From a virus: 64,000 nt of DNA. Each line of letters starts with the position of its first letter. Position 1 is the stretch's first letter. Of this stretch, positions 3,323-53,397 are shown piece after piece. The DNA is taken from the UHGV virus genome UHGV-0348865; one strand, 5' to 3'. The translations under genes and the position numbers were made by a program. The notes beneath the pieces were generated by a model that ran no database searches, was not told the DNA's origin, and saw only the letters and a list, made by a program, of their open reading frames with translations.

Positions 3323-3568
3323 ATGGAAACTGTTAAGGAAATTAATGATGATCAAAAGTCTACGCAACAAGTGCTTCGCTTTCGCTATCGTAATTGGAGA
3401 GGCGAGGTTGCTGACCGGTCCGTTATTCCACTCCGAACCTCCGTTGCTAGCTCCCGTTTTCATAACGGTGGCAAACCTTGTTGGATTATGACAGCGATAG
3501 ATGTAGAGAAAGATGAGATTCGAGAGTTCAAACTCTCTGACATTATTCAGTATTATGATTTAATCTAG
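3323..3568 (+). CDS. hypothetical protein
   Basis: 81-aa ORF with RBS; no motif recognised. Confidence 0.45.
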   Translation: METVKEINDDQKSTQQVLRFRYRNWRGEVADRSVIPLRTSVASSRFHNGGKPCWIMTAIDVEKDEIREFKLSDIIQYYDLI

Positions 3569-3576
3569 GAGATTGT

Positions 3577-3702
3577 ATGGGAAATGACCAAGAACTGATT
3601 GACGAAATGTTAAAACTAGCCAACCGTCTCACAGAGATAATTAAAGAGATCAATGCAAGAAAGGAATCATACTTAGCCTCTGAAGAGAATTGGGATGTAT
3701 GA
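3577..3702 (+). CDS. hypothetical small protein (41 aa)
   Basis: ATG preceded by TAGGAG; below the ORF-track size cutoff; last plus-strand gene before the convergent terminator. Confidence 0.3.
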   Translation: MGNDQELIDEMLKLANRLTEIIKEINARKESYLASEENWDV

Positions 3703-3735
3703 CGAATTTGATGGTTTTTAAAATTTAGAAACAAA

Positions 3736-3776
3736 TAAAGCCCTCTTGGATTTCTCCTTGAGGGCTTTTCTTTTAT
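3736..3776. terminator. bidirectional rho-independent terminator between convergent modules
   Basis: Inverted repeat AAAGCCCTC...GAGGGCTTT flanked by an A-run on the 5' side and a T-run on the 3' side, between the last plus-strand gene and the stop of the 1473-aa minus-strand gene. Confidence 0.6.
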
Positions 3777-6700
3777 CACTCCTTAGGTCGAACTCTTACA
3801 CGGAGTCTCGATTGACGCTTACTGCGTTCAAGCTTCTCTGACAATGAGCCACGTTTAATCTTCGGCTTCCCTTCGTCATTAAACTTCTCCAAGAACTTCA
3901 AGTACTCAGTACGATTCGTTGTCTTGTAAGAAGGAATCTTAATATCAGGGTTCTCTTCAATCACACGTCTCATCTTCGCTACATCATCCCTACCAAGCAA
4001 CTTACTCTTAGCCTGTTCAGCTGTAGAACCAAAGATCTTCTCCAGTGCTCTAGATTTGTTACCACCTGCGGAAGAAGCACCAAGTTTAGCAATAGCAGAG
4101 TAATCATCAGCACTAAACCAAGCTACTGGATTATCACCATATTTCTTCTTGTTTTCAGCAGCAGTCTGCAATGCACGTACAAAGCGACGGTTGTTACCAG
4201 CTTTATCTGCACCATGAACCCTGTCTAAAACTTCAGCCACACTAGCCAACTCATCCAAGCTTTTCCCACTCAAGAAAGCTTTCTCTACTTTATCAGCAAA
4301 GACCTCTTCCTGTTGTTTAATGCTTTCCAAGATATCAGAATTTGCTTGAGATCTTTCATCGTCAGGCAGAGCAGAACGAATCTTCTCCATCTCCAATTCT
4401 TCCTCTTGCAGTTTCTTAATATCAGAGTCAACCTTCTGAGCCTCTTCAATAGCCTTCCTAGTATCCGCATCCAAGTTATCAAGTTTACCTTCAGTGTCTC
4501 CAGTAACCTTAACAATCTCTTTCTCAATAGGAGTCATTGATTCGTACTTCTTAGCGAACTTCTCAACATCAGCTTCGATACGAGAACGAGCATTCTGATG
4601 TTCAGTAGGAGTCATAGGCTTCTCAAGAAGTGCATAACGGTTATCCATATAGGAACCAGCAAATGCTTCAGCATCCTCTCTAGATATGCCCTTATCTTCC
4701 ATAGTACGCATCAGGCGGCGATGAATGTCATCACGTTGACGTTGTACTGCCATAAGGTCATTCTCACGCTCTTGGGCCGCTTTAAGCTCTTCACTGCGCT
4801 TAACTCTCTTGTCCACATCAAACTTACGGTTCATCTCTTCCGCTTGCTCATACATCTTGTTCCACTTGGCCTGACGAGCATCTTCCTCTGCATCAGTTAA
4901 ACGACGCTGACGATCAAGGTAATCTGACTCGGCGTTATGGATACGTTCGATATAACTACGGAACTTCTCTGGAGGAACTGGAGAGTTCTTGTCATGGTGA
5001 GCAGCTAACTGTTTCAATGTACGAGATTCCTGAGCCTCACGGACAGGTTTAGGTAAACCTTCCATCATCTTCTCAATCTCACTCTTCTGAGCTGCAATAG
5101 CCTCTAGAGTTTTACGTTCATTCTCAACAGCAGCCTTAGCATCTGAACGAGCCTGAGCCTTTTTCCTGAGGGTAGCAAGACGTTCTTCACGAGCCTGTAA
5201 GTGCTTAGCAGCAGCTTCGTACTGAGAGTTCTTGTTAGCTTTGTTGAAGGCATTCACTTCTCTGTTGTAGGTGTTAATAAACCCATCCCAAATATCCTTC
5301 ATCTGACCAACTTCCAAAGCCTCTTCCCTACCAGCCTTCTCTGAAGATTTAAACTTCCCATCTACAAAGTCATTCATCAGCTTACGCATAGCATCTTTCT
5401 GAGCAGGACGTAAAGGTTCTGAATCAATCAAAGCATCAATCTCAGACTGAAGCTCTTTCTTCTGGTCAACCAGTTTAGGAGCATTCTTGTTATCGAAAGC
5501 TTTGTTCTCTTCTAGAGCTTGTTGATACAATCTATCAAACTCATCTTCACGCTGCTTCTGATACAACCTTTCAGCACGACGTTTCAGACTATCCAAGTTA
5601 GTTACGTTCCCACCTAAACCTTTCTCTTCAGCACGTAATGCCTTAGTAGCAACGTCTTCTGGCAGACCACGTTCCTTAACCCATTCAGCAAAATTAGTTC
5701 GTACAGTGTTGTTCTTAGCAGTAGCAATACCTTGCTGAGAAGCCAGCTGGTTACGAGCCATTTCTTCATGACGTTCAGTGTTGATAGCATTATCTTCCTG
5801 ACGAATACGACGCATCAGCTCCTTAGGATCACCTTTATAAGCCAAGAAGTTTTCAGCAGTAGCTTTAGCTTTAGCAGCCTTAGAGTACAGAGAACGAGCA
5901 AAACGTTCTGCACGATCTTTAGTAGCCTGACGAGCAGCACTAGACATAGCAGCTAAACGTTCTACACCACTTGCCGGTTTAACGTCCTGTACAGCTTCCT
6001 TAGAAGCTTTAGGAGCACGGGCAGGTAATGGCTCAGCTTTGACTGTTGGTTCCTCTACAGTTGGTTCTGGAGCCTGTACGGCCTCTTCTTGAGCACGTTG
6101 CTGTTCCATTGCACGACGCTCCTCTAAAGGATTACGAGCAGGGAGAGGTTCAGCCTGTGGAGCTTGTTCGACCGGAGCTCCTTGAGCAGCAGCTGCCTCT
6201 TCTTCAGCGCGACGCTGTTCAGCCTGACGGATAGCACGTCTTTGCGCAACTAAATCACGAGCTGTAAGAGGAGTTTCTTGAGGAGTAGAAGAAGGAAGAT
6301 TTTCTTCCGTCACAGTACTAGAAGAAGGCTCCCGAACCGGTTCGGTTTCCACGTCATTTTGCGTCTTAAATTTAATGTCATCAACAACTGGTTCTTCTTC
6401 CATCTTAGCACGAGCTTCATCAGCAGTAGATTTAGCACGAGCAACTTCCAAATCACCACGAGCCAGAGAGCGAATAGCCTCACTGTTAGACTCTTGTTGC
6501 TTAACACGTTGAGAGCGAGCACGCTGAGAAGAGAAGCGATTCAGAGCATACTTAGCAGCACCAAGGGTGTTCATAACCAGACTAGGAGAAGAAGCCTCAC
6601 GGAAGCCATCATCAGTCAGGGAAGTCCAACCACGGTCTTGGTTGCTCATGAACTTAGCTGTATTATTCAGAGTGTAAGCATCTTGAATAGGATTAAAACC

Positions 6701-8197
6701 TTCAGGCATACCTTTCAGTTTCTTCAACCCACCAATAGCTTTCTTCATCTCTGGAGAAACATTATCAGCCATCTTCTGTAGTTCAGCAGCTTTCTCTACA
6801 AAGTTATTAAAGTCTTCACCATCACGAGCTTTGAATCGATTTGCTTCATTGTAGAAAGTCTTGTAAGCATCGATGAAATCACGGTCAGCTTGTGTACGGT
6901 TCTTAATATCAATCGGACTACCAGTAAAATCACCAGAAGCTCGGAGAGAAGTTAATTCACGGTCTAGGTTATCTAGAACATCTGTAAGAGCTTTCGTATT
7001 ATCTTTGGTGTAATCAGCCATTGCATCCTTCATAGCAACAGCCTGCTTCTGGTTGTGCTCGTTATCCGCGAATGCTTTACCACGAGTCTTAGCAGGAGAA
7101 GCTAAAGGGTTAAGGCCCGGAATGTTGGAATGCTCTTTCTGGACAGAAGCAGCTTTCTCAGCACGAGCTTGGTCAGTATTAAGAATACGCTGAGCAGCAG
7201 GAGAGTCTACAGCAACAGCATCTGTAATACGGAATCCATTCTCATCTAGAAGGTTTAGAGCAGAAGCAGCGTTAGCAGTTTCAGCCTTAGAGTAAGCCTC
7301 TTTCAATTCATCAATATTTTTAGCACTACGAATCAGTTCATCATCAGCAGCAATATCAGTCTTCGCATATTCTGGAGTGTTCTTGAAGACAGCAGAATCC
7401 GGACGGCTAATCAAACCATGAACTCCACCAACTGCACCACCAAATGCAGCACCCATAGCCCCTTCTTCAATAACCCCTTCCAATGTCTTAGCTAAATCAT
7501 TGTCATCACCATACTTGTTCTGAACTTCAGCAGCACCAACAAGAGCACCACCTTTAGCACCAGCCACTGCGTTACTAGCAACGTTCTGACCAATACGACC
7601 AAGTGTGGACTCAGCTGTACCAACAGCACCCGGAAGGATTCTCTGAGCTGCATAGTTAGCACCACCAACTAAGGCTGCATCTAGAACAGACTTATCTTCT
7701 CCCTCTTCAGGGGTTTGGTCTGCATACGCACGACCGGTCTCACGACCTGCGATGATAGCAGCGGCAGCTAATGGGTTAGCAACTGTCAGACCAATGTCGG
7801 CAACCACCCCAGCATACTGACCAGCAGACTTACCAATCCCATCCTCAATCTTATCCATACGTTCTTTCAAGAGGTTTTGAGCGTTCTCTTGCATACGCTT
7901 CCCGTAACCAGTTTGTGCTCCAGTTAGATCTTCACCAATCTCAACTAAGCCCCCAATACCTCTAGCAAGATTAGCAGAGATGTTAGCACTGCCGGACTGA
8001 AGGGCATTTGACACACCTTGAGCAAACTCACCTATAGCACCACGTTCTTCTTGTTGTGGTTGTGCTACTGGCTGTTCCTCAGGAATAGAGCCACCTGCTG
8101 CCTTATATTGTTCTCTCATTCGAGCTTGTTGCTCCGGAGAGGCATTCAGATACGCAGGAGCTTTGGAAGCTTCTTCCCACGGTTTAATGTTAGCCAT
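3776..8197 (-). CDS. large internal virion / ejection protein (about 1473 aa, coiled-coil rich)
   Basis: Very long A/E/K/R-rich helical protein at the distal end of the structural operon; start placed at MANIKP (AAAGGAGA RBS) rather than the track start at 8242. Confidence 0.55.
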   Translation of the reverse strand: MANIKPWEEASKAPAYLNASPEQQARMREQYKAAGGSIPEEQPVAQPQQEERGAIGEFAQGVSNALQSGSANISANLARGIGGLVEIGEDLTGAQTGYGKRMQENAQNLLKERMDKIEDGIGKSAGQYAGVVADIGLTVANPLAAAAIIAGRETGRAYADQTPEEGEDKSVLDAALVGGANYAAQRILPGAVGTAESTLGRIGQNVASNAVAGAKGGALVGAAEVQNKYGDDNDLAKTLEGVIEEGAMGAAFGGAVGGVHGLISRPDSAVFKNTPEYAKTDIAADDELIRSAKNIDELKEAYSKAETANAASALNLLDENGFRITDAVAVDSPAAQRILNTDQARAEKAASVQKEHSNIPGLNPLASPAKTRGKAFADNEHNQKQAVAMKDAMADYTKDNTKALTDVLDNLDRELTSLRASGDFTGSPIDIKNRTQADRDFIDAYKTFYNEANRFKARDGEDFNNFVEKAAELQKMADNVSPEMKKAIGGLKKLKGMPEGFNPIQDAYTLNNTAKFMSNQDRGWTSLTDDGFREASSPSLVMNTLGAAKYALNRFSSQRARSQRVKQQESNSEAIRSLARGDLEVARAKSTADEARAKMEEEPVVDDIKFKTQNDVETEPVREPSSSTVTEENLPSSTPQETPLTARDLVAQRRAIRQAEQRRAEEEAAAAQGAPVEQAPQAEPLPARNPLEERRAMEQQRAQEEAVQAPEPTVEEPTVKAEPLPARAPKASKEAVQDVKPASGVERLAAMSSAARQATKDRAERFARSLYSKAAKAKATAENFLAYKGDPKELMRRIRQEDNAINTERHEEMARNQLASQQGIATAKNNTVRTNFAEWVKERGLPEDVATKALRAEEKGLGGNVTNLDSLKRRAERLYQKQREDEFDRLYQQALEENKAFDNKNAPKLVDQKKELQSEIDALIDSEPLRPAQKDAMRKLMNDFVDGKFKSSEKAGREEALEVGQMKDIWDGFINTYNREVNAFNKANKNSQYEAAAKHLQAREERLATLRKKAQARSDAKAAVENERKTLEAIAAQKSEIEKMMEGLPKPVREAQESRTLKQLAAHHDKNSPVPPEKFRSYIERIHNAESDYLDRQRRLTDAEEDARQAKWNKMYEQAEEMNRKFDVDKRVKRSEELKAAQERENDLMAVQRQRDDIHRRLMRTMEDKGISREDAEAFAGSYMDNRYALLEKPMTPTEHQNARSRIEADVEKFAKKYESMTPIEKEIVKVTGDTEGKLDNLDADTRKAIEEAQKVDSDIKKLQEEELEMEKIRSALPDDERSQANSDILESIKQQEEVFADKVEKAFLSGKSLDELASVAEVLDRVHGADKAGNNRRFVRALQTAAENKKKYGDNPVAWFSADDYSAIAKLGASSAGGNKSRALEKIFGSTAEQAKSKLLGRDDVAKMRRVIEENPDIKIPSYKTTNRTEYLKFLEKFNDEGKPKIKRGSLSEKLERSKRQSRLRVRVRPKE

Positions 8198-8264
8198 AAC
8201 GTCTCCTTTTATAAATAAAAATGTCCTACCCCCTATATACATTATAGAAGGCAGGACTTAGGTC

Positions 8265-17866: not shown

Positions 17867-18670
17867 TTAGCTAATACGTCTCCAAATGTGAGCTGCTCTG
17901 AATGGTGGCAAAGTGTTAATAGGTTGACGAGAGATATCATCACGACCAAGACTTACACTACCAGAGATTGTATGAGTATGTGTGTCATTATCAGTTCTCT
18001 GACTATAACCACCACCCGGACTATACCAGTTTGGTGAGCTGTTATGACCACTAGCATCCCCACGACCAAACACCATATTGTGACTGTGAGTATTACTGGA
18101 TAGAGAGAAGCTGGAGCCATTAACTGTCATCAAAGGTACGTTCTCAGTTCGAATAGTATTGAAGACACGACCACCAGTACCACCTGCTTGGAACTCAACT
18201 CTCTGAGCATTAGGAACAGTTCCATCAGGGTTTACTACACCAGTACCCATAATGACACCAGTCACTTTAGCCCAAGAACCAAACCCTAAGGAGATTGAAT
18301 CACCTGGGTTAATGTCTTCTTCAGTGATATAGTAAGAACCAATTCGATAGAGCTTATTCTCCATCCAGTTCTTCATGAACGCTTCCATCTGGCCTTTAGT
18401 AACAACATCCTTGTCACCAGTTCCCGGAGTAACATTCTTGATCATAAGACCACCAACATCCATTGCATCACCAGTAAACTTAAGCTTCTCTGACATAATC
18501 TTAAAGGTATCAGAATCTATATCAACCGGTTCTGTAACATTGGGGAATGTGTTCTGTAACGTTTGTTTAATGAGGCGGATTTGAGCCGCCCCTTCGTAGA
18601 TGTAATCCCTGTCTCTAGGATAGAGCGGGTTTAAGTCGGTAATAACTACCGCATTAGTTTCGATAGCCAA
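17867..18670 (-). CDS. tail-associated structural protein
   Basis: 267 aa with a Gly/His-rich C-terminus (NTHSHNMVFGRGDASGHNS...THTHTISG); location between lysozyme and the Big_2 protein. Confidence 0.4.
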   Translation of the reverse strand: MAIETNAVVITDLNPLYPRDRDYIYEGAAQIRLIKQTLQNTFPNVTEPVDIDSDTFKIMSEKLKFTGDAMDVGGLMIKNVTPGTGDKDVVTKGQMEAFMKNWMENKLYRIGSYYITEEDINPGDSISLGFGSWAKVTGVIMGTGVVNPDGTVPNAQRVEFQAGGTGGRVFNTIRTENVPLMTVNGSSFSLSSNTHSHNMVFGRGDASGHNSSPNWYSPGGGYSQRTDNDTHTHTISGSVSLGRDDISRQPINTLPPFRAAHIWRRIS

Positions 18671-19515: not shown

Positions 19516-21624
19516 TCACTTGTTAGATTTGAGTTCAGCAATCTCTGCTTTAAGGGTGTCGATTTGTTCCATCAAAGCCAGAATAGCTTCGTGGTGAAGA
19601 CCAATCGCAATACCAGTAGAATCTGGAGATAGGACACCTTTGACAACTGTTCCATCAGGGAGGGTTCTGTCTGGGCCTGTATAGACCAACTCTGGATAGA
19701 TATCCTGAACTTCTTGAGCAATGAACCCAATACCAAACTGGCCCCCGTCTAAGCGTCGCCAAGTGTACCCATGTAGTTTCTTCATCTTCTCAAGAGGTTC
19801 TTCTATCTTAGCAATATCCTTTTTAATTCGGATATCCGAATTACTTACCCAGTTAGCAGGAGCTATGGCACTACCAAACTGGTTAAACAACCAATCATAA
19901 TTCACCCCTGCTCCTGAGAATCTAAGTATGCCAAAGCTATCAACGCCCACGTTCTCCGCAAGAGACATGGAGAAAACAGCGCCCTGTGTTCCTGGATTAC
20001 CCGCCCTGCCTGTCAGCTCACAAATAAACGCCGGGGATGCTACAGGCCACAGACCATCAGACCCTAACTTAGAAGCTGCAATGAAACCTGACCCCACACC
20101 TCTAGTGTATGTTGGGATTGTTAGCTCCCCACCAAGGTCGAATCGAATCTCGGAACTTTTACCTTGATAGTCTTCAATTCTCCATACACCACCTCCACGT
20201 TGACCATAATTACCATCAGCACGCATAGAAGATCTTATGTGCATAGAGTCTCCAATATTATAGTCAGAGCGAACCTCACCACCCTTTATAGCCGTCCCTG
20301 TTCCAGGAGCAGCGGAATCTCCATTAATAACAGACCAAGAAGTATTAGCTGCAATAAATGCTCCGTTGGCACGAACTACCCATACGCCAGATACTTTGTT
20401 TGGAACGATCTCTGCTGAGTTGTTGCGTCCGTAGACGGCGCTGGAACGGGAGGCATCGAAGGTGATTCGCCCGTATGCGTCCCCAGAAGCTGCCAACGCG
20501 GTGAGGTTCGTGGCTGGCGTAACAGTTCCCCCAGCAAACGCCCCGCTGGGACTGAAGTATATCCCACGTGTTCCGGCGTATGTGTTGTCTAAAGAGGCTG
20601 TGATATTAGGAGCGCTATTCAACGCGACAGTCATATCAGAAGCAGAAGTTTTTCCACCTCGGAAAAACAAACCTTCTATAGAGCCATCCTGAACACCGTT
20701 CCAATCTGGTACACGGAAAGTAGTTGTACCATTACCTAAAGAATATTTGCCACGCTGAGATGGGTCTGCTAACCAATCAGAATCGTCAATAGGGGTTAGC
20801 ATTTGAGCAAACACCCATAGTTCTGGATATTTAGCTCGTTCTAATAGCTGCCCATCTAAAGTCACGTCATATGGGTGTATAAGTGCTCGGCTTGCAGCCA
20901 TATGAGGAGTACCAATTCCGTAGTTCATAATACCGTTCATTGTGGCTCCACCAGAACCACCACTGTTACGAAGCTGTCTCATAGTCACAGCGTCATAATC
21001 ACCTACACCATCTGCAATAGTAACAGGCTGTTGGAAAGTTACCTTCTGAGTAAACTGTTTGATATCAGAGTTAATTCCTGTACGGTTCACACCAATAGTG
21101 CGACCCTTAGAATCCTTAACATAAGAGCCAATCGCAGCAAAAGGCAAATCCTCAATCTCTGGGCGATAACGTTTAGAATAAACTGGATACTTGGTTTCTA
21201 CACCAGAATCGTTCTGGTCTACTACTTGAAGACGACCAGCAGAGTGAATCTCTACCCCTTGAACAGAAGAAGCATAGCTACCAATCTTGATTGCATTGTC
21301 AGTAGTGACTTTCATCATATCCACAGACTCTACACCATTAGCCCCAGCAGAACGGAAAGGGATGTTATTGTCTACGAAAGGGTCTGCTTTGAACAAAGCA
21401 CCTTCCATGATAGGTTGAATTGAATCTAATACATAATCTTTAGATGCACCTTCTGTTTTAGTTTGATATACATCAGCTGCATCTGTTTTCTGTAGATATT
21501 TACCTGTTAAATCTACTGCACCAGCTACTCCGTCTACAGTAGAAACCCCAACAACTGCTGCATCTCTATTGATTACAACATGTGGCATCATTATCCCAGA
21601 TTTGGGCATTAATTCTCTAGCCAT
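19516..21624 (-). CDS. tail fibre/spike with C-terminal intramolecular chaperone (peptidase S74) domain
   Basis: C-terminus SDIRIKKDIAKIEEPLEKMKKLHGYTWRRLDGG...GFIAQEVQDIYPELV...LHHEAILALMEQIDTLKAEIAELK matches the endosialidase-chaperone domain; tail-collar-like motif DGQLLERAKYPELW...TTFRVPDWNG. Confidence 0.85.
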   Translation of the reverse strand: MARELMPKSGIMMPHVVINRDAAVVGVSTVDGVAGAVDLTGKYLQKTDAADVYQTKTEGASKDYVLDSIQPIMEGALFKADPFVDNNIPFRSAGANGVESVDMMKVTTDNAIKIGSYASSVQGVEIHSAGRLQVVDQNDSGVETKYPVYSKRYRPEIEDLPFAAIGSYVKDSKGRTIGVNRTGINSDIKQFTQKVTFQQPVTIADGVGDYDAVTMRQLRNSGGSGGATMNGIMNYGIGTPHMAASRALIHPYDVTLDGQLLERAKYPELWVFAQMLTPIDDSDWLADPSQRGKYSLGNGTTTFRVPDWNGVQDGSIEGLFFRGGKTSASDMTVALNSAPNITASLDNTYAGTRGIYFSPSGAFAGGTVTPATNLTALAASGDAYGRITFDASRSSAVYGRNNSAEIVPNKVSGVWVVRANGAFIAANTSWSVINGDSAAPGTGTAIKGGEVRSDYNIGDSMHIRSSMRADGNYGQRGGGVWRIEDYQGKSSEIRFDLGGELTIPTYTRGVGSGFIAASKLGSDGLWPVASPAFICELTGRAGNPGTQGAVFSMSLAENVGVDSFGILRFSGAGVNYDWLFNQFGSAIAPANWVSNSDIRIKKDIAKIEEPLEKMKKLHGYTWRRLDGGQFGIGFIAQEVQDIYPELVYTGPDRTLPDGTVVKGVLSPDSTGIAIGLHHEAILALMEQIDTLKAEIAELKSNK

Positions 21625-21663
21625 TAAATCCTCCTAAAAGCTCCCCGAAGGGAGCTGTGTTAA

Positions 21664-24600
21664 TTAACGAGCTTTCAGTACAGCTACTTCATTCTCTAGA
21701 GCTTCAATCTTGTCCAAGAGGACAAGAAGAACTTCGTGATGAAGAGCGGCTGCTACACCATAGGTGTCAACAGATTTAACATCCTTCACAATTGTTCCAT
21801 CTTTCAACTCCGTGTCAGAGAACTTAGTAACCTTGACGGCATCCGGAAAAACCTTCTCAACATCTTGAGCTAAGAAACCAATACCATTGGGCTTAGAGAG
21901 TTTATCCAACCGCTCCCATGTTACACCCTTAATAGCTTTAAGTTTCTCTATAGGGTTTTCAATCCGTTTGATGTTCGTCTTAAGCCTCTCATCAGAGGTG
22001 CTTGCCCAATTTCCTGCTTGTGCCGTTCCATCAGGAAAGAACTTGAAGTCAGCAGCTGTTCCAGTACCACCATTCACAGAAATCTGAGCGTGCATCAACT
22101 CTGTTCCACCACCACGAACACCACCAAAAGTGTAACTGCCATCATACCAGTCACCAGAGAAATAGGAAACATACCCCGGAGTACTTTGGTTGAAATTGAT
22201 CATCCTGATAGCGTTCTTCTCACTTGGTGCTACACCAACAGAATTGTTAGCCCTGACCAGCACGTCAGTAGGTCTTAAGTATGCATCAATTGTTAGTGCC
22301 CCGTCAGCCCTCTCTGTTCCAATCTGGGTGATAGCATTGGGAAATACCAGAGTACCAGCATTATTGAATTTCCATTCCTGGTTTCCATTAAGAATCTTAG
22401 CACCAGACTTATTAGAAGCCCCATCTATCTCTCCATAAGCAGACATAGTTGCTGAGTAGGTTAAATCTGTTCCTATCTTATATTCTGAACGAACCAGACC
22501 ACCAGATACAGTAAACCCAGCCGATGGTTTAACATCATCGCTATTAATAACACTCCAAGAAGTATTAGCAGCAGTAAAGCCACCATTAGCACGAATCACC
22601 CAGACACCTATGAAGCTGTTGGTGCGGACTTCGGTCGTGTTGTCGCGACCATAAGCGGCGTTTGATAGGCCCGCTCGAAAGCCGACGGAAAGCGCTGGTG
22701 TGGTTCCTGCGCCTAACGGAATATTAAGTGCTGGATCAGCCGCAAACATCGCCCCCGTAGGATCTCCATATACGCTCCATATGTTCGCACCAACGGAGCC
22801 TGTAATATCAGGCGCGGCGTTCTGCTGAACAGTACCGTCGTTGGCGCTGTTACCACCGTCACCGCGAGCATACAGACCAGAGATAGAACCGGTTTGAACG
22901 CCATTTCTATCAGGAACGCGGAAAGTAGTAGAACCATCACCTAAAGAGTATTTACCTCTTTTCTGAGGATCAGCCAGCCAGTCAGCATCTGTGATAGGGC
23001 TTAAGGCTTGAGCATAAGCCCATAAATCTGGATATGAAGTACGAGACAAAAGTTGTCCATCAGAAGGTACATCATTAGAGTGAATTAAAGCACGACTATC
23101 AATTAAACGGAAATCACCTATGTTGAAGTTGGACACTCCGTTTAAGCTTGCACCACTTCCACCACCTCCTTGGTTGCGTAATTGACGAAGGGTAACTGCA
23201 TCTGAATCACTAACCGCATCACCACCTAAACGAGTGGGACCAATCAATCCTTCCAGTTTCGTAATATCTGAGTTAACCCCAGAAGAGTTGATAGCAGCAG
23301 CACCAATAGCAGCAGGAGTAGGTTTGTTACCTTCAGTGTAAAACTTATTCTCACCGCTAGGACCAACATGCACAGGAACCGAAGCAGACAGCACTTTTGT
23401 GTTACTTGTATCGTTGCCAACCAAGACAGTACCGTCAGAACCAGAGGTGATCAAATTAACAGCAACACCATTACTAGAAGTGCCTGTTAATACAATACCT
23501 GTTCCTAGATTTAAGTGTCCTGTCATTTTACCACCAGAAGTAGGAAGAGCACCTAAATCAGAAGAGGTCAAAGCAACATTACCTGTTACCTCGTCAGGAA
23601 CTTTTCCATTAACTGCAACAACATATGGAACTTGAGCAAGAGGCTTACCATCATACTGAGCATCACTGGTAAGATTTGGAGATCGAATTGCTTCCCCTCC
23701 TGTCCAATCAGGCAGACGGATGTTGATGTAGTTTGTAGAATCCGCATCAGTGATACCGTCAGCAAGTTTACCCCAAGAATAGTATTGCTTTGAACCAGCC
23801 TGCCACTCTGTCTCAGAAACTACCGGAAGCTGACCGTTGACCAAAGAAGCTCCTAAATCTGATGCAGTGTCTTTGGAAACCAAACGACCATCAGCAGGCA
23901 AAATACCCGGGTAAGAAACAGGACGAGATGGGTCATATGGAAACATCAACAATTCACCAAGATACAGAGATGGGTTCCCTGTCGGGATGGTGATATCAAT
24001 ATTACCAGTTGAGTCAGGAATACGAGAGTTTACTGTTATTACCCTATTCTCTGTCTTAACTGGGGTTAATGTTTTGTTCGAAGCTACAGTATAAAATTCA
24101 TATTTGTAATCTTCCCAAACCAGAACGTTCTCACCAGTTTTTCTGTTAACAGCATCGGCATCAGCCGCAGCTTTTGTTCTGTATGTTTTAACATAACCAT
24201 CCACTTTCCCATCAACCTGAGATGTACTGTAAGATGCAACGTTTACGACATTATTTAAACCAACTGAAGTTTTATCTAAGACTAGATTAACATCACCGGT
24301 AGCTGGAGATCCTCCGTTCACTGCAACTGAACGAACAGATGGGATTAAGTTAGCGATATCCTCTAAGGTTGTTTTATGTACGGTATTATCGTCCTTATCA
24401 ACATAGAATCCTAAATCACCAAGCTCAGGAATACCTGTAGGTGCTGTATCCAAGTCTTTAACAGAACCATCTTTTCCGGGTTCGCCTTCTGGGATACCTA
24501 AAGAGATTACACCAGTGTTAGGGTTAAAAGAACCAGTAGCTTGACTCCCCGGAGGAAGGGTAGTTACATCAACAGACATTCCCAACAGGATATCAAGCTG

Positions 24601-24951
24601 TCTCTGAACTTCGATTAGTTTCTGGTTAATGAGAGCAACGGCATTATTAGCATCCGACACTGCTGCGTTAGTCTGAGCAATAAGTGTCATCAAACGAGCA
24701 TCTTGATCTTTAAAGTCCTGTTTAAGTTCTTCGATATCTTGCTTCATTAAAACACCTTGTTGATACAGACGTTCTACTTCAGTGATCAAGTCATCAATTG
24801 TACCAAACTTAGACTCCGCTAGCAGTGCCCAATATTTGGAGTCAGCTGCATATTCTGCTGCTTGCTTGTAAGCTCCGATAGAGCCTTCCTTAGCACCAAA
24901 CTGCCCAACATCATTCACTGCATCAGGTGCTTGGTTATTATAAACGATCAT
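21664..24951 (-). CDS. long tail fibre with C-terminal intramolecular chaperone (peptidase S74) domain
   Basis: C-terminus SDERLKTNIKRIENPIEKLKAIKGVTWERLDK...GFLAQDVEKVFPDAV...LHHEVLLVLLDKIEALENEVAVLK; shares a tail-collar-like central module with the 702-aa fibre. Confidence 0.85.
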   Translation of the reverse strand: MIVYNNQAPDAVNDVGQFGAKEGSIGAYKQAAEYAADSKYWALLAESKFGTIDDLITEVERLYQQGVLMKQDIEELKQDFKDQDARLMTLIAQTNAAVSDANNAVALINQKLIEVQRQLDILLGMSVDVTTLPPGSQATGSFNPNTGVISLGIPEGEPGKDGSVKDLDTAPTGIPELGDLGFYVDKDDNTVHKTTLEDIANLIPSVRSVAVNGGSPATGDVNLVLDKTSVGLNNVVNVASYSTSQVDGKVDGYVKTYRTKAAADADAVNRKTGENVLVWEDYKYEFYTVASNKTLTPVKTENRVITVNSRIPDSTGNIDITIPTGNPSLYLGELLMFPYDPSRPVSYPGILPADGRLVSKDTASDLGASLVNGQLPVVSETEWQAGSKQYYSWGKLADGITDADSTNYINIRLPDWTGGEAIRSPNLTSDAQYDGKPLAQVPYVVAVNGKVPDEVTGNVALTSSDLGALPTSGGKMTGHLNLGTGIVLTGTSSNGVAVNLITSGSDGTVLVGNDTSNTKVLSASVPVHVGPSGENKFYTEGNKPTPAAIGAAAINSSGVNSDITKLEGLIGPTRLGGDAVSDSDAVTLRQLRNQGGGGSGASLNGVSNFNIGDFRLIDSRALIHSNDVPSDGQLLSRTSYPDLWAYAQALSPITDADWLADPQKRGKYSLGDGSTTFRVPDRNGVQTGSISGLYARGDGGNSANDGTVQQNAAPDITGSVGANIWSVYGDPTGAMFAADPALNIPLGAGTTPALSVGFRAGLSNAAYGRDNTTEVRTNSFIGVWVIRANGGFTAANTSWSVINSDDVKPSAGFTVSGGLVRSEYKIGTDLTYSATMSAYGEIDGASNKSGAKILNGNQEWKFNNAGTLVFPNAITQIGTERADGALTIDAYLRPTDVLVRANNSVGVAPSEKNAIRMINFNQSTPGYVSYFSGDWYDGSYTFGGVRGGGTELMHAQISVNGGTGTAADFKFFPDGTAQAGNWASTSDERLKTNIKRIENPIEKLKAIKGVTWERLDKLSKPNGIGFLAQDVEKVFPDAVKVTKFSDTELKDGTIVKDVKSVDTYGVAAALHHEVLLVLLDKIEALENEVAVLKAR

Positions 24952-26338: not shown

Positions 26339-27397
26339 TTACGCCGCCACCTTTCCCGCAGCAGTGAACAGAACGCCGGAAGCATACGGGTTGCGGTGAC
26401 GCAGACCAACTTCCATTTCAATCATCCACTTCTCGTAAGAACCGTCTTTAGCCAGTTCAGTACGTTTCGGAGCACGCAGAACCATCTGAGTCCAGTCAGC
26501 GCTACGGAAGAAGTAAACTGCATCGGTAGGCATCCAACGGTTAACGATGATTTTGTAGCTCTGGCCCAGCGGGTCAGTGATGCTGTTAACTTCGTAGATG
26601 AACTGCTTGGTGTTCTCAAAGATACGCTTACGTGAACCCTGAGTATTTTCTTGCAGGCCAGCGAAGATCTTAGCATGAGCCGGGTTGATCATGATGATAT
26701 CTGCTTCAGAACCAGCGGTATACAGTTGCAGAGTCATATCAAAGATATCAGCTTCGTCGAAACCAATGTTAGTGGTCGGGTTAGAAGCATTCTGTGCAAC
26801 TTTAACAGTTACTGCACCAGTATCCGGGTCAGCAGGACCATTCTTAGTCTTGTCAACAACGCCACCAGACAGACCACCGTGAGCACACAGGAACTGGAAT
26901 GCACCAGTCTTACGAGCTGCATGGGTGTCGTTCTTACCAATCTGATCTGGATCAGTTGCAGAGTTAGTCAGGTACTGGTCAGCCAGAACGTCGGTACGAG
27001 CCTGACCGGACAGAAGGATTTTCTCGAGGTCACGCTTAATCTCTTTACCTTTCTTCTCCAGCTGATACATCAGTTCACGACCACGACCGTAGTTAGCGGT
27101 GGTGTTAGCAGTATCAGAAACACGAACAACCTTACGCAGAATCTGAGTAACGTTAGATTTGATAACAGTCGGTTTCATTTCGCCGTCTTCAGCACGAGAG
27201 CCTTCGACGTGTGCGTTATTACCGTCAACGCTTGCCAGTGCATCGGTCTGCCAGCTAAAGATAGTCTGGTTGATAGACTCTTTACCGGTCATAGATACGA
27301 ACGGGGTATCCTGAGGGGACAGAACAGAAATCCAGTTAGCAAAAGAAAGTTTTTTACCATTCTGGTCATACGATACAAATAAAGTTGGATTAGCCAT
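26339..27397 (-). CDS. major capsid protein
   Basis: 352 aa directly downstream of the scaffold gene; host-like highly-expressed codon usage; canonical terminase-portal-scaffold-capsid order. Confidence 0.75.
   Translation of the reverse strand: MANPTLFVSYDQNGKKLSFANWISVLSPQDTPFVSMTGKESINQTIFSWQTDALASVDGNNAHVEGSRAEDGEMKPTVIKSNVTQILRKVVRVSDTANTTANYGRGRELMYQLEKKGKEIKRDLEKILLSGQARTDVLADQYLTNSATDPDQIGKNDTHAARKTGAFQFLCAHGGLSGGVVDKTKNGPADPDTGAVTVKVAQNASNPTTNIGFDEADIFDMTLQLYTAGSEADIIMINPAHAKIFAGLQENTQGSRKRIFENTKQFIYEVNSITDPLGQSYKIIVNRWMPTDAVYFFRSADWTQMVLRAPKRTELAKDGSYEKWMIEMEVGLRHRNPYASGVLFTAAGKVAA
26351..26357 (-). other. candidate -1 programmed ribosomal frameshift slippery heptamer G GGA AAG
   Basis: Minus-strand GGGAAAG in X XXY YYZ register relative to the capsid frame, 3 codons before its stop; the -1 frame is open from here into the Ig-like ORF. 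Confidence 0.5.
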
Positions 27398-40985: not shown

Positions 40986-41303
40986 ATGAAAAACCCGTTC
41001 GAGCTGATAAGTACAGACCCTGTAGAGGCTAACATGCTTTCATTGAAATCCAAGCTGATCATCATTCTTACGAAGTTAATTCGTGATCAGGGTTGGTCGC
41101 AGTGTGTTGCCGCAGAGAAGCTAGGTGTTAGCCAGCCGAGGATTAGTAGCCTTATGAATGGACAGCTTTCAAAGTTCTCCATCGACACATTGTTGAAATT
41201 GATTCTCAAGGTGGGGTATGAGCTGGACATGAACTTCACCCCATTAAACACCAGATCGCCACTTGCAATAGCTGTAAAAGGTGATGATATAAGTTACAAA
41301 TAG
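40986..41303 (+). CDS. XRE/HigA-family helix-turn-helix DNA-binding protein
   Basis: Canonical HTH WSQCVAAEKLGVSQPRISSLMNGQ followed by the FSIDTLLKLILKVGYEL segment typical of HigA-like regulators. Confidence 0.75.
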   Translation: MKNPFELISTDPVEANMLSLKSKLIIILTKLIRDQGWSQCVAAEKLGVSQPRISSLMNGQLSKFSIDTLLKLILKVGYELDMNFTPLNTRSPLAIAVKGDDISYK

Positions 41304-51626: not shown

Positions 51627-52598
51627 ATGTCAATCTCCACAACGATCGTACCTCTTAATCTTCAACAAGATTTAGGGGAACAGAAGTTCTTAGGTCGTGG
51701 GTGCTTCGGTATCCACAACTACATGCAAGGTCAAGTCGTAGCTGATATTAATGGTGAAACTATCTCGGAAGAAGGGCGTTATCGTCGTTTCAACCGAGAT
51801 ATCAACTTGCAACTGGAGATGTTGAATTACTGGACTCACTCTTTTCATGGTCATATTGCATCTGATATTGAAAAGAACTTGGTTGAAACAGCAGACACTA
51901 TGAACTCTATGTCTTGCTATCGTGACGTATTTACAATTACTTCAGCGAATAGTGTTTCTGTCAACCTTCGTGAGCATCCAGCAGATCAAATCTTCACAGG
52001 ACTTATGCTCTTCCGTAGCATTCTGGAAGGGCAGTATCGTGGAATGGATTTCCTAGTAGAAGGAATTGAAGACAGGGAAGAGTGGCTGAAGCGTAAACGC
52101 ATCGGTATAGCTCTAGTGTTAGCTGGGTTGGGTCGTGACTTCTTCGGTGGATGGTCTCAACGAGGAAGAGCCAATGGGAGTAGTGAGAGCACATCTATTG
52201 TTATTAACAATAACATGTCAGCAGCAGCTTTCCTTCCTTTGGTTGTAGACTCTGATGAATATACGAAGCAAGTGTGGGTTCAAAACCCCTTCGGTGTTGG
52301 CGACAATGAGAATGGTTATGTTCGTAACCACAACCAAGATGCCTTACGAAGATTTGCTCGTGCTAAAGATCAAGACCCGGACGAGTATGAAACAATGTCA
52401 GAGTGGTTAAGACTCTGGTCCAACTGTTATGGTCACAAACGTGAATCAATAGACGACAAGTTGGGAAACATTACAGTACAAAACTTTACATCCCGACTGA
52501 TTCAAAGAACTGGAGCAGATTCCGGTCTTACTCTTGAAGAAGTTGGTAACACAATCTCATCTCTCTTTTCTGAACTAGTGGAGTATTACAATGACTAA
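51627..52598 (+). CDS. hypothetical protein (cluster member)
   Basis: 323 aa; end overlaps the next gene's start. Confidence 0.45.
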   Translation: MSISTTIVPLNLQQDLGEQKFLGRGCFGIHNYMQGQVVADINGETISEEGRYRRFNRDINLQLEMLNYWTHSFHGHIASDIEKNLVETADTMNSMSCYRDVFTITSANSVSVNLREHPADQIFTGLMLFRSILEGQYRGMDFLVEGIEDREEWLKRKRIGIALVLAGLGRDFFGGWSQRGRANGSSESTSIVINNNMSAAAFLPLVVDSDEYTKQVWVQNPFGVGDNENGYVRNHNQDALRRFARAKDQDPDEYETMSEWLRLWSNCYGHKRESIDDKLGNITVQNFTSRLIQRTGADSGLTLEEVGNTISSLFSELVEYYND

Positions 52599-53397
52599 GC
52601 GCAAATTCCTCATCGGCTCTGACCCTGAAATGTTCGTTCGTACTAGCAACGGTATCATCACCTCTGTAGCTGGTCTATTAGGCTGTTCTAAGGACGATAA
52701 GATCACTCTGGCTAAGGATGTTCGTCTTCAAGAGGACAACGTACTGGCTGAGTTTGACATTGACCCACAGAGCAGCTTTGAGGCGTTTAACGATAACATG
52801 CAACGTGGTATTGATCTCACTAACAATGTCCTGAACAAACTGGACATGGAAACAGCTCCGGGTGTTAGCTCTCACATCTTCACTGAAGAAGAGATGAAGA
52901 CCTTTAATGAATCAGCGTTCATCTTCGGGTGCACTCCTGATTTCAACGCCTTCACTGGTCAGAAAAACCCATCCCCGACTTCTCAGAATAAGGGACTTCG
53001 TACTGCCGGTGGTCACGTACATCTTGGCGTAGTTGGTGCTTTGGATATCACTCTGCAAACTCAGATGATGCTGGGTGTGTTGTGTGACTACTTCCTGTCT
53101 CTCCCAGCAGTAATTATGGACAAAGATACTCGCCGTAAAGAACTCTACGGTAAAGCATCTGCAATCCGTTATAAAGACTATGGTATTGAATACCGTTCGC
53201 TGTCTAACTTCTGGATTAGTGATCGTGAAAACCGTAAGTTTGTTTACGATCAGGTTGACAAGGTTGTTCAGCAGTGTGATATGTCCACTCTGATGGCATT
53301 GCACTCTCGCCTTCCGATTGAGAAGCTTCATGAAATCATTAACGGGAACAACGTTAAAGAAGCTGACCAGCAGATCAAACTCCTTCAGGTAGCATAA
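52591..53397 (+). CDS. putative amidoligase (glutamine-synthetase/GCS2-like carboxylate-amine ligase fold)
   Basis: N-terminal LIGSDPEMFV strand and internal TAGGHVHLGV motif resemble metal/ATP-binding motifs of GS-like amidoligases. Confidence 0.4.
   Translation: MTKRKFLIGSDPEMFVRTSNGIITSVAGLLGCSKDDKITLAKDVRLQEDNVLAEFDIDPQSSFEAFNDNMQRGIDLTNNVLNKLDMETAPGVSSHIFTEEEMKTFNESAFIFGCTPDFNAFTGQKNPSPTSQNKGLRTAGGHVHLGVVGALDITLQTQMMLGVLCDYFLSLPAVIMDKDTRRKELYGKASAIRYKDYGIEYRSLSNFWISDRENRKFVYDQVDKVVQQCDMSTLMALHSRLPIEKLHEIINGNNVKEADQQIKLLQVA

Follow-up and report, generated by a model that had tools for sequence, protein, structure and literature searches.

Two adjacent tail fiber genes in the virus genome UHGV-0348865 contain, at homologous positions, short stretches of DNA that are richer in GC than their surroundings, which raises the question of whether this DNA was acquired from elsewhere and, if so, as what unit. 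The window (the whole stretch of 64,000 nucleotides that was analyzed) is, judged by its backbone matches, from a coliphage of Kuravirus (phiEco32/SU10-like, Gordonclarkvirinae). Both genes are open reading frames (ORFs) on the minus strand: gene S (19516 to 21624, 702 amino acids) encodes the distal, "T-shaped" lateral tail fiber protein, and gene L (21664 to 24951, 1,095 amino acids) encodes the proximal one, with subunit names following the SU10 and BASEL papers (PMC11990801). The initial annotation had described a GC-rich module of about 250 amino acids, located at 20280 to 20650 and 22500 to 22900, as laterally acquired and as duplicated or homogenized between the two fibers. Our results point, with good confidence, to a smaller unit, namely, horizontal exchange of a sub-domain cassette within the gp12-like first receptor-binding domain (RBD1), as in ordinary tail fiber mosaicism. 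Under this explanation, a hypervariable cassette of ~76 to 79 codons (~230 bp) would be enclosed by two parts of RBD1 that are strongly conserved, and recombination in these flanks would swap cassettes horizontally among the fiber genes of coliphages not related to one another (Kuravirus, T5-like, T1-like, and lambdoid temperate phages) and also between the two paralogous kuravirus fiber genes. Both cassettes of the window would have been imported recently into an AT-rich backbone and would still show a codon composition that reflects a GC-richer background. Should the cassette help to set glycan specificity, a swap of it or of the distal tip (RBD2) would retarget the fiber.

GC enrichment in the center of the modules

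The GC content was 0.526 in 20280 to 20650 and also in 22500 to 22900, compared with a mean of 0.426 (standard deviation, 0.030) for 400-bp windows, and both fiber intervals (z of ~3.4) ranked near the top of the whole 64 kb. Codon position profiles, however, confined the excess to the central and least conserved ~80 codons of each module (S amino acids ~331 to 420 and L amino acids ~691 to 780), so that the annotated GC richness holds for the center only. In both centers, the GC content at third codon positions (GC3) climbed from ~0.25 to 0.51 to 0.59, and that at second positions (GC2) climbed to ~0.6. The S cassette (20404 to 20631, minus strand, amino acids 332 to 407) had a GC3 of 0.59, versus 0.31 for the remaining codons of the gene (P = 5e-6), and the L cassette (22624 to 22860, minus strand, amino acids 698 to 776) had a GC3 of 0.51, versus 0.31 (P = 4e-4). 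The values expected from amino acid composition and window codon usage were 0.28 for S (P < 1e-5) and 0.31 for L (P = 1e-5); the compositional deviation is real. Amino acid composition (Ala, Gly, Thr, and Ser) accounted for about half of the overall excess in GC, and the other half was synonymous. The module flanks had GC3 values of 0.24 to 0.32, like the rest of the genome.

The idea that this domain is GC rich in general was rejected. In IMG/VR, 31 full-length homologous modules had a mean GC3 of 0.36 in the center (0.25 to 0.32 in other kuraviruses), and the center was richer than the N-terminal flank in only 7 of 33 modules. The correlation with genomic GC was 0.45 for center GC3 and 0.74 and 0.57 for the flanks, with mismatches in both directions, and the two largest GC3 excesses of a center over its own flanks were those of the S and L cassettes (z = 4.1 and 3.4).

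Other GC-rich stretches were observed in the window. The major capsid gene (26342 to 27397) had a gene-wide GC3 of 0.474, versus ~0.33 in its neighbors, and its 90-codon windows reached 0.59, equaling the highest in the window; this probably reflects codon adaptation of a highly expressed gene. A 1,488-amino-acid ORF (3779 to 8242) contained two more GC peaks, at 5800 to 6100 and 7400 to 7700 (~0.50 to 0.52 in 400-bp windows), and plus-strand ORF windows at 40986 to 41300, 52590 to 53130, and 54150 to 54740 had GC3 values of 0.50 to 0.59, comparable to those of the fiber cassettes. The tip of S showed a milder GC bump (0.51 to 0.53 at 19900 to 20200).

Replacement of the S cassette in near-identical genes

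Protein relatives were collected by a search of 5.8 billion sequences and scored zone by zone. The protein P0002, encoded at the metagenomic locus L083, was 94 to 100% identical to S except in the center (44%). At the DNA level, the L083 gene was 98 to 100% identical to S on either side of the cassette, and all module mismatches fell within 20404 to 20616, a stretch of ~200 bp. The alternative allele had a GC3 of 0.23 to 0.37, compared with 0.53 to 0.67 in S, and was 27 to 50% identical to S in amino acids. By this alignment, the two genes, otherwise identical, differ by the clean replacement of a ~200-bp cassette. Another relative, P0001, was 99% identical to S through the module and 62% identical in the tip.

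The comparison with seven kuravirus loci, in which the backbone was 77 to 98% identical up to position 19521, gave a similar partition. S retained DNA homology over 20680 to 21668 (75 to 81% identity) and in a short island at ~20306 to 20388 (mostly 81 to 92%), while no homology to these loci was found over 20359 to 20680 or 19521 to 20300. Likewise, L had no DNA homology to them over 22608 to 22850, a gap bracketed by an island at 22538 to 22608. These gaps coincide with the GC3 peaks in S and L.

Recurrence of the L cassette in unrelated phages

The L cassette lies within an exchange tract of 407 bp (22555 to 22961, minus strand) that has 2 mismatches (99.5% identity) to the distal fiber gene of another kuravirus contig, L085, with divergence of 20 to 25% immediately outside; the module flanks of L085 were 76 to 80% identical to L. 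Both ends of the tract fall in the same two conserved islands that gave the only DNA high-scoring segment pairs (HSPs) between S and L. More widely, the center of L recurred in proteins with module flanks that were 65 to 80% identical and tips that, where comparable, were 24 to 28% identical. The amino acid identity in the cassette was 99% in P0003 (the L085 protein, a kuravirus distal fiber with an S-type N terminus, tip, and chaperone), 91% in P0156 of a T1-like siphovirus, 86% in P0139 of a lambdoid temperate phage, where the gene adjoins an integrase, and 84% in P0006, a T5-like LtfB that adjoins LtfC; further relatives were P0148 and P0153 (84% each) and P0127 (80%). The cassette DNA was 100, 92, 90, and 89% identical to that of L in P0003, P0156, P0139, and P0006, respectively, compared with 63 to 80% in the flanks (63 to 72% in the T1-like, lambdoid, and T5-like relatives). 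Identical residues shared the same codon at a frequency of 0.90 to 1.0 in the cassette, versus 0.46 to 0.84 in the flanks.

In all of these contexts, the L cassette had a GC3 of 0.46 to 0.53. This value matches the flank GC3 in the lambdoid and T1-like genes (0.42 to 0.56) but not in the kuravirus and T5-like genes (0.25 to 0.37), which suggests that the cassette may have originated in a GC-richer siphophage or temperate phage. Extra synonymous conservation of the flanking islands as a recombination signal was not found; the same-codon frequency was 0.34 to 0.47 everywhere across the family.

The distal fiber at L085 (L085:2645-8097; GCA_001292545.1) consists of an S-type N terminus, the L cassette (100% nucleotide identity), an S-type tip (90% amino acid identity), and the chaperone (100% amino acid identity), and it is thus a three-way mosaic of pieces from both fiber genes of the window. 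By this evidence, exchange between paralogous fiber genes does occur in the kuravirus population.

The tips followed a different distribution. The tip of L was 55 to 69% identical to 68-kb Wifcevirus-type fiber tips (P0058, P0042, and P0081) but only 24 to 28% identical in proteins that share the L cassette at 66 to 99%, and exchange of the tip independently of the cassette was seen in P0001 and P0003. The S-type tip and chaperone also occurred on fibers without a gp12-like module (P0013, P0026, P0029, and P0054), one of which, P0054, has Phage-tail_3/CarboxypepD_reg domains.

Relationship between S and L and the origin of the cassettes

S and L are clearly homologous proteins, and this homology, together with the GC-rich patches at homologous positions and the paralog exchange documented by L085, would favor duplication of the module from one fiber gene into the other, or gene conversion within the genome. 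Residues 179 to 700 of S aligned with residues 554 to 1094 of L at 42% identity over ~520 amino acids (BLASTP E value, 4e-105), reaching the C termini and including the Peptidase_S74 chaperone. The motifs quoted in the initial annotation were confirmed in both proteins by alignment, and its shared segment corresponds to the best-conserved part (S203-445/L578-815, ~240 amino acids, 56% identity) of a homology that extends much further; the tip was poorly conserved (20 to 25% identity). The proposed similarity of the copies at the nucleotide level did not withstand comparison with the identity derived from the protein alignment and window codon usage. Over the annotated span, the S-L nucleotide identity was 0.533, compared with an expected 0.526 ± 0.016 (z = 0.39), the whole module gave a z of 0.51, and no sub-region exceeded a z of 1.7. 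Identical residues used the same codon in 41.9% of cases, versus 42.4% by chance, and synonymous sites were saturated. A megablast search of S against L gave no match, the longest shared word was 15 nucleotides, there were no long identical tracts, and the only blastn matches were two short HSPs, one of 144 bp (72% identity) and one of 72 bp (79% identity), both over the most conserved motifs. In addition, the GC-rich center was the least similar part of the two genes (35 to 42% amino acid and 43 to 51% nucleotide identity), and by these alignments the S and L cassettes are different alleles. Because the DNA similarity equals the protein-based expectation and codon sharing equals chance, recent duplication or homogenization is excluded for this genome, and we consider duplication of the module from one fiber gene into the other, or its upkeep by gene conversion, very improbable.

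Acquisition of the whole ~250-amino-acid module as a single unit from a GC-richer donor would agree with the presence of the module in many unrelated phages and with the gain by L of a complete RBD1-RBD2-chaperone extension when compared with SU10 and Bas91. However, only the center of the module is GC3 rich, breakpoints were observed inside the module, and no donor with the whole module, flanks included, near-identical at the DNA level was found; the low GC3 of the flanks and the 75 to 81% nucleotide identity of the N-terminal part of the S module to kuravirus distal fiber genes indicate that this part belongs to the backbone and that the foreign unit is not the whole module. The whole-module reading is therefore unlikely, and lateral acquisition stands for a central cassette of ~200 to 400 bp, with breakpoints at nucleotide resolution. 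Slightly less probable still is that no transfer took place and that an Ala/Gly/Thr/Ser-rich loop composition and local codon selection raised the GC content. These residues dominate the cassettes, GC2 is raised in them (0.62 and 0.58, versus 0.45 and 0.44), and the highly expressed capsid gene is likewise high in GC3; composition does account for part of the total GC excess, via codon positions 1 and 2. On the other hand, the cassette GC3 is about twice that predicted from amino acid composition and codon usage, the alternative allele at the same site of a near-identical gene and the homologous cassettes of other kuraviruses have low GC3, and the same cassette is present at 89 to 100% nucleotide identity in other phages. 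Short, hypervariable, and enclosed by conserved sequence within a receptor-binding protein, the cassette could also belong, as the variable region, to a targeted hypermutation system such as a diversity-generating retroelement, but the probability of this is negligible: no second (template) copy of either cassette was present in the 64-kb window, in which no search for a reverse transcriptase was made; the differences between alleles are indels and changes at 50 to 65% of positions, not point changes of a single base; and whole cassettes recur near-identically in other phages.

Several points weigh against horizontal cassette exchange as set out above. No donor of the S cassette was found, and its only relative was the near-identical gene encoding P0001: a distant blastn search against phages matched the flanks only, E. 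coli genomes and a word-index protein search with the cassette alone gave no match, and the best hit of an exhaustive phmmer search over 1.8 billion representatives was 51% identical. The presence of two GC-rich cassettes in one genome is not explained, and the direction of transfer is only suggested, from the cassette-flank GC3 match in lambdoid and T1-like contexts. Since several further genes of the window, the capsid gene among them, also have stretches with GC3 values of 0.5 to 0.59, composition alone would not prove a foreign origin. Finally, the function proposed for the cassette below is a probable one, and the published switch of specificity covers the cassette and the tip together.

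A more far-reaching idea, which we offer tentatively and regard as rather doubtful, is that the ~230-bp center of RBD1 is a discrete pan-phage "head cassette." Its allele pool would be native to GC-richer siphophages or temperate phages, from which alleles would have been inserted repeatedly, via the two islands, into the fiber genes of AT-rich, virulent phages across the three morphotypes and into either paralog of a branched fiber; the two unrelated GC-rich cassettes would then reflect co-acquisition or selection rather than chance. If this were true, the natural breakpoints would be ready-made swap junctions for O-antigen retargeting.

Domain architecture and predicted function

Both S and L end in a gp12-like RBD1, a T5-like RBD2 as the tip, and an S74 intramolecular chaperone (IMC) that is predicted to cleave itself. 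For Gordonclarkvirinae, Wifcevirus, and some Tequintavirus phages, Humolli et al. (2025, PMC11990801) described fibers with this order of domains in one polypeptide as "T-shaped" and both RBDs as phylogenetically scattered through horizontal transfer across morphotypes. All of the following features are on the minus strand. In S, the alignment placed the N-terminal conserved part of RBD1 at 20632 to 21018 (amino acids 203 to 331); this collar-like part, with the motifs DGQLL...YPELW...TTFRVPD, had a mean pairwise amino acid identity of 0.64 to 0.87 among 31 homologs and a GC3 of 0.28. Beyond the cassette lies the C-terminal conserved island (20290 to 20403, amino acids 408 to 445; GVWVVRANGAFIAANTSWSVIN), one of just two meaningful S-L DNA HSPs, in which amino acid identity among homologs reached 0.90 and short stretches were 81 to 92% identical in nucleotides to other kuraviruses. 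It is followed by RBD2 (19840 to 20289, amino acids 446 to 595), which is a second, independently exchanged cassette, and by the Peptidase_S74 chaperone (19519 to 19839, amino acids 596 to 702), with an SDxRxK motif at amino acid 596. In L, the corresponding features are the N-terminal part at 22861 to 23220 (amino acids 578 to 697; GC3 of 0.25) and the island at 22507 to 22623 (amino acids 777 to 815), both placed by alignment, the latter containing the S-L DNA HSP at 22537 to 22608, the tip at 21997 to 22506 (amino acids 816 to 985), and the chaperone at 21667 to 21996 (amino acids 986 to 1095), with an SDERLK motif at amino acid 986. The conserved parts that bracket the cassette are thus the collar-like part up to TTFRVPD.NGVQ and the island GVWVIRA.G.F.AANTSWSVIN. 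PF13884 matched above its gathering score (cutoff, 22 bits) at amino acids 596 to 648 of S (54 bits) and 986 to 1040 of L (55 bits), and the Ser-Asp cleavage motif is present in both proteins (S595/D596 in S and S985/D986 in L). S is predicted to self-cleave after Ser595; for EP335 gp13, cleavage after the conserved Ser has been demonstrated (PMC8217332).

The module had fold matches to T4 gp12, T4 gp37, and T5 Ltf, and tblastn located it in 402 phage records; the S module was 52 to 55% identical to Bas99, Bas101, and other kuravirus fibers. The Collar family PF07484 fell below its threshold in L (21 bits versus a cutoff of 24; E value, 3e-4; amino acids 667 to 683 only) and did not match S, while it is carried by some homologs (P0111, P0134, and P0135); the relationship is therefore remote, and we use the term "collar-like." The head of T4 gp12-type fibers contains an HxH metal-coordinating motif. 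This motif was found neither in S and L nor in their kuravirus and LtfA/LtfB homologs, and the module is gp12-like in fold, yet no gp12 ortholog. No NCBIfam matches were obtained and no solved structure of the module was found, with PDB 8hqz (DT57C LtfA) resolving the N terminus only. An AlphaFold2 monomer model of S amino acids 200 to 595 had a mean pLDDT confidence score of 70.8, with ~90 in the collar-like part and 62 to 82 in the cassette.

A further collar-like motif (DGRLV...RLPDWTG), weakly similar to the RBD1 collar (E value, 0.015), was observed closer to the N terminus of L (amino acids ~325 to 418; 23700 to 23980). It is common to SU10 gp12 and DT57C LtfA (amino acids 341 to 399) and falls in the region that the literature proposes as the distal fiber docking site.

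The cassette is the hypervariable part of RBD1, and its place after the collar-like part is that of the receptor-binding head in gp12. It probably forms an exposed head of RBD1 that contributes to O-antigen or glycan specificity, and we lean slightly toward the view that it provides an exposed surface in contact with the glycan. Up to amino acid ~665, DT57C and DT571/2 have identical LtfA proteins, which diverge from the cassette onward. The fragment of LtfA that switches specificity between O22 and O87 runs from about amino acid 485 to the end (Golomidova et al. 2016, PMC4728585) and so includes this divergent part, cassette and tip together. EP335 gp13, an ortholog of S, binds O157/O26 cells (PMC8217332).

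Phage identity and gene context

Positions 8000 to 32000 of the window matched SU10, phiEco32, Bas91, and CHD5UKE1 at 94 to 96% identity with 82 to 85% of the length covered, and the backbone was 94 to 98% identical to SU10, phiEco32, and Bas91. Neighboring genes matched the Pfam families SU10_adaptor, Gp10_C, and Big_2. Kuravirus synteny, compared with SU10, Bas91, and pEC-N1203, is kept, with the fiber genes beside the SU10 adaptor, the holin/lysin genes, and the Gp10_C short fiber; the true "short tail fiber" is this 267-amino-acid Gp10_C protein (17867 to 18670). Conserved gene order and orthologous N-terminal attachment parts identify S and L as the branched long fiber of Kuravirus. The homologs of S are SU10 gp13, phiEco32 gp15, EP335 gp13, and DT57C LtfB, and those of L are SU10 gp12, phiEco32 gp14, and DT57C LtfA. 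Over its full length, S matched phrog_6921 (tail fiber; E value, 3e-245), and it was 69% identical to SU10 gp13 over amino acids 1 to 455. L combines phrog_10305 with phrog_6921; its amino acids 1 to 574 matched the SU10 fiber protein (PDB 7z47_D; E value, 2e-249), amino acids 235 to 889 matched DT57C LtfA (8hqz_d; E value, 3.5e-122), and amino acids 1 to 468 were 81% identical to SU10 gp12. The backbone part of L (23542 to 24951, minus strand, amino acids 1 to 470) is common to kuraviruses and would serve virion attachment and distal fiber docking, and from 23576 upward, L was 76 to 87% identical in nucleotides to SU10, Bas91, phiEco32, and other kuraviruses. SU10 gp12 and Bas91_0008 match L over amino acids 1 to 468 only and lack the module, whereas L, pEC-N1203-2Af.1, L085, and LtfA have it in their proximal fibers; by this distribution, the proximal fiber of the sub-lineage carries its own recognition end, as that of DT57C does.

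In the closest relative, L084 (an ENA metagenome sequence of 76.5 kb), an HNH_3 endonuclease gene is located between the genes for the Ig-like protein and the adaptor (L084:2229-2741); the window has none at that position. The proximal fiber region of L084 (about 3480 to 5960) was called only as a 281-amino-acid fragment. ORFs on the plus strand that run antisense inside the fiber genes of the window (20164 to 20418, 20875 to 21423, and 22018 to 22438; 82 to 182 amino acids) are of low complexity and were taken as spurious.

Comparison with known systems

The T-shaped fibers described previously (PMC11990801) have the same domain order and fold matches as S and L. The differences are that here exchange is resolved below the domain level, to a cassette of ~200 to 400 bp in RBD1 with its own GC3 signature, and that, unlike SU10 gp12 and Bas91_0008, the proximal fiber L also has the full RBD1-RBD2-IMC series. 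In DT57C and DT571/2 (PMC4728585), LtfA and LtfB likewise carry recognition domains on both subunits; amino acids 239 to 888 of L were 42% identical to LtfA 223-887, and amino acids 1 to 504 of S were 41% identical to DT57C LtfB. However, DT57C is a siphovirus and the phage of the window a podovirus, and the N-terminal attachment part of L is SU10-like, not T5-like. The fibers of SU10 (gp12/gp13), phiEco32 (gp14/gp15), and EP335 (gp12/gp13) are orthologous to L and S, with the same order and N-terminal parts that are 69 to 81% identical, whereas the cassette, the tip, and the whole C-terminal half of L are different alleles, and DNA homology breaks exactly there. A similarity of EP335 gp13 to T4 gp12 by HHpred has been reported (PMC8217332). 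In T4 gp12 (PDB 1H6W/5LYE), as in S and L, a variable domain is inserted after the collar-like motif, but gp12 binds the lipopolysaccharide core and is itself conserved, while the cassette of S and L is hypervariable. In T-even gp37/gp38 and in phage fiber mosaicism generally, short variable receptor contact segments lie between conserved homology arms and are shuffled among phages; compared with gp37/gp38, S and L belong to another protein family and fold, and the cassette is marked by GC3 and crosses morphotypes.

Thus, the T-shaped architecture and its horizontal spread were already known (PMC11990801), and the locus is a well-resolved example of known mosaicism. What it adds are naturally occurring recombination junctions within the gp12-like domain, from one exchange of ~200 bp and a second of 407 bp, and a cassette family with 89 to 100% DNA identity across kuraviruses, T1-like, lambdoid, and T5-like phages; it also indicates that GC3 can flag cassette imports in an AT-rich backbone. 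Receptor-binding domains determine which O-antigen types are open to phage attack, and these results are of use for annotation and for the choice of swap boundaries in host range engineering, while the view of tail fiber evolution established in the known systems is unchanged.

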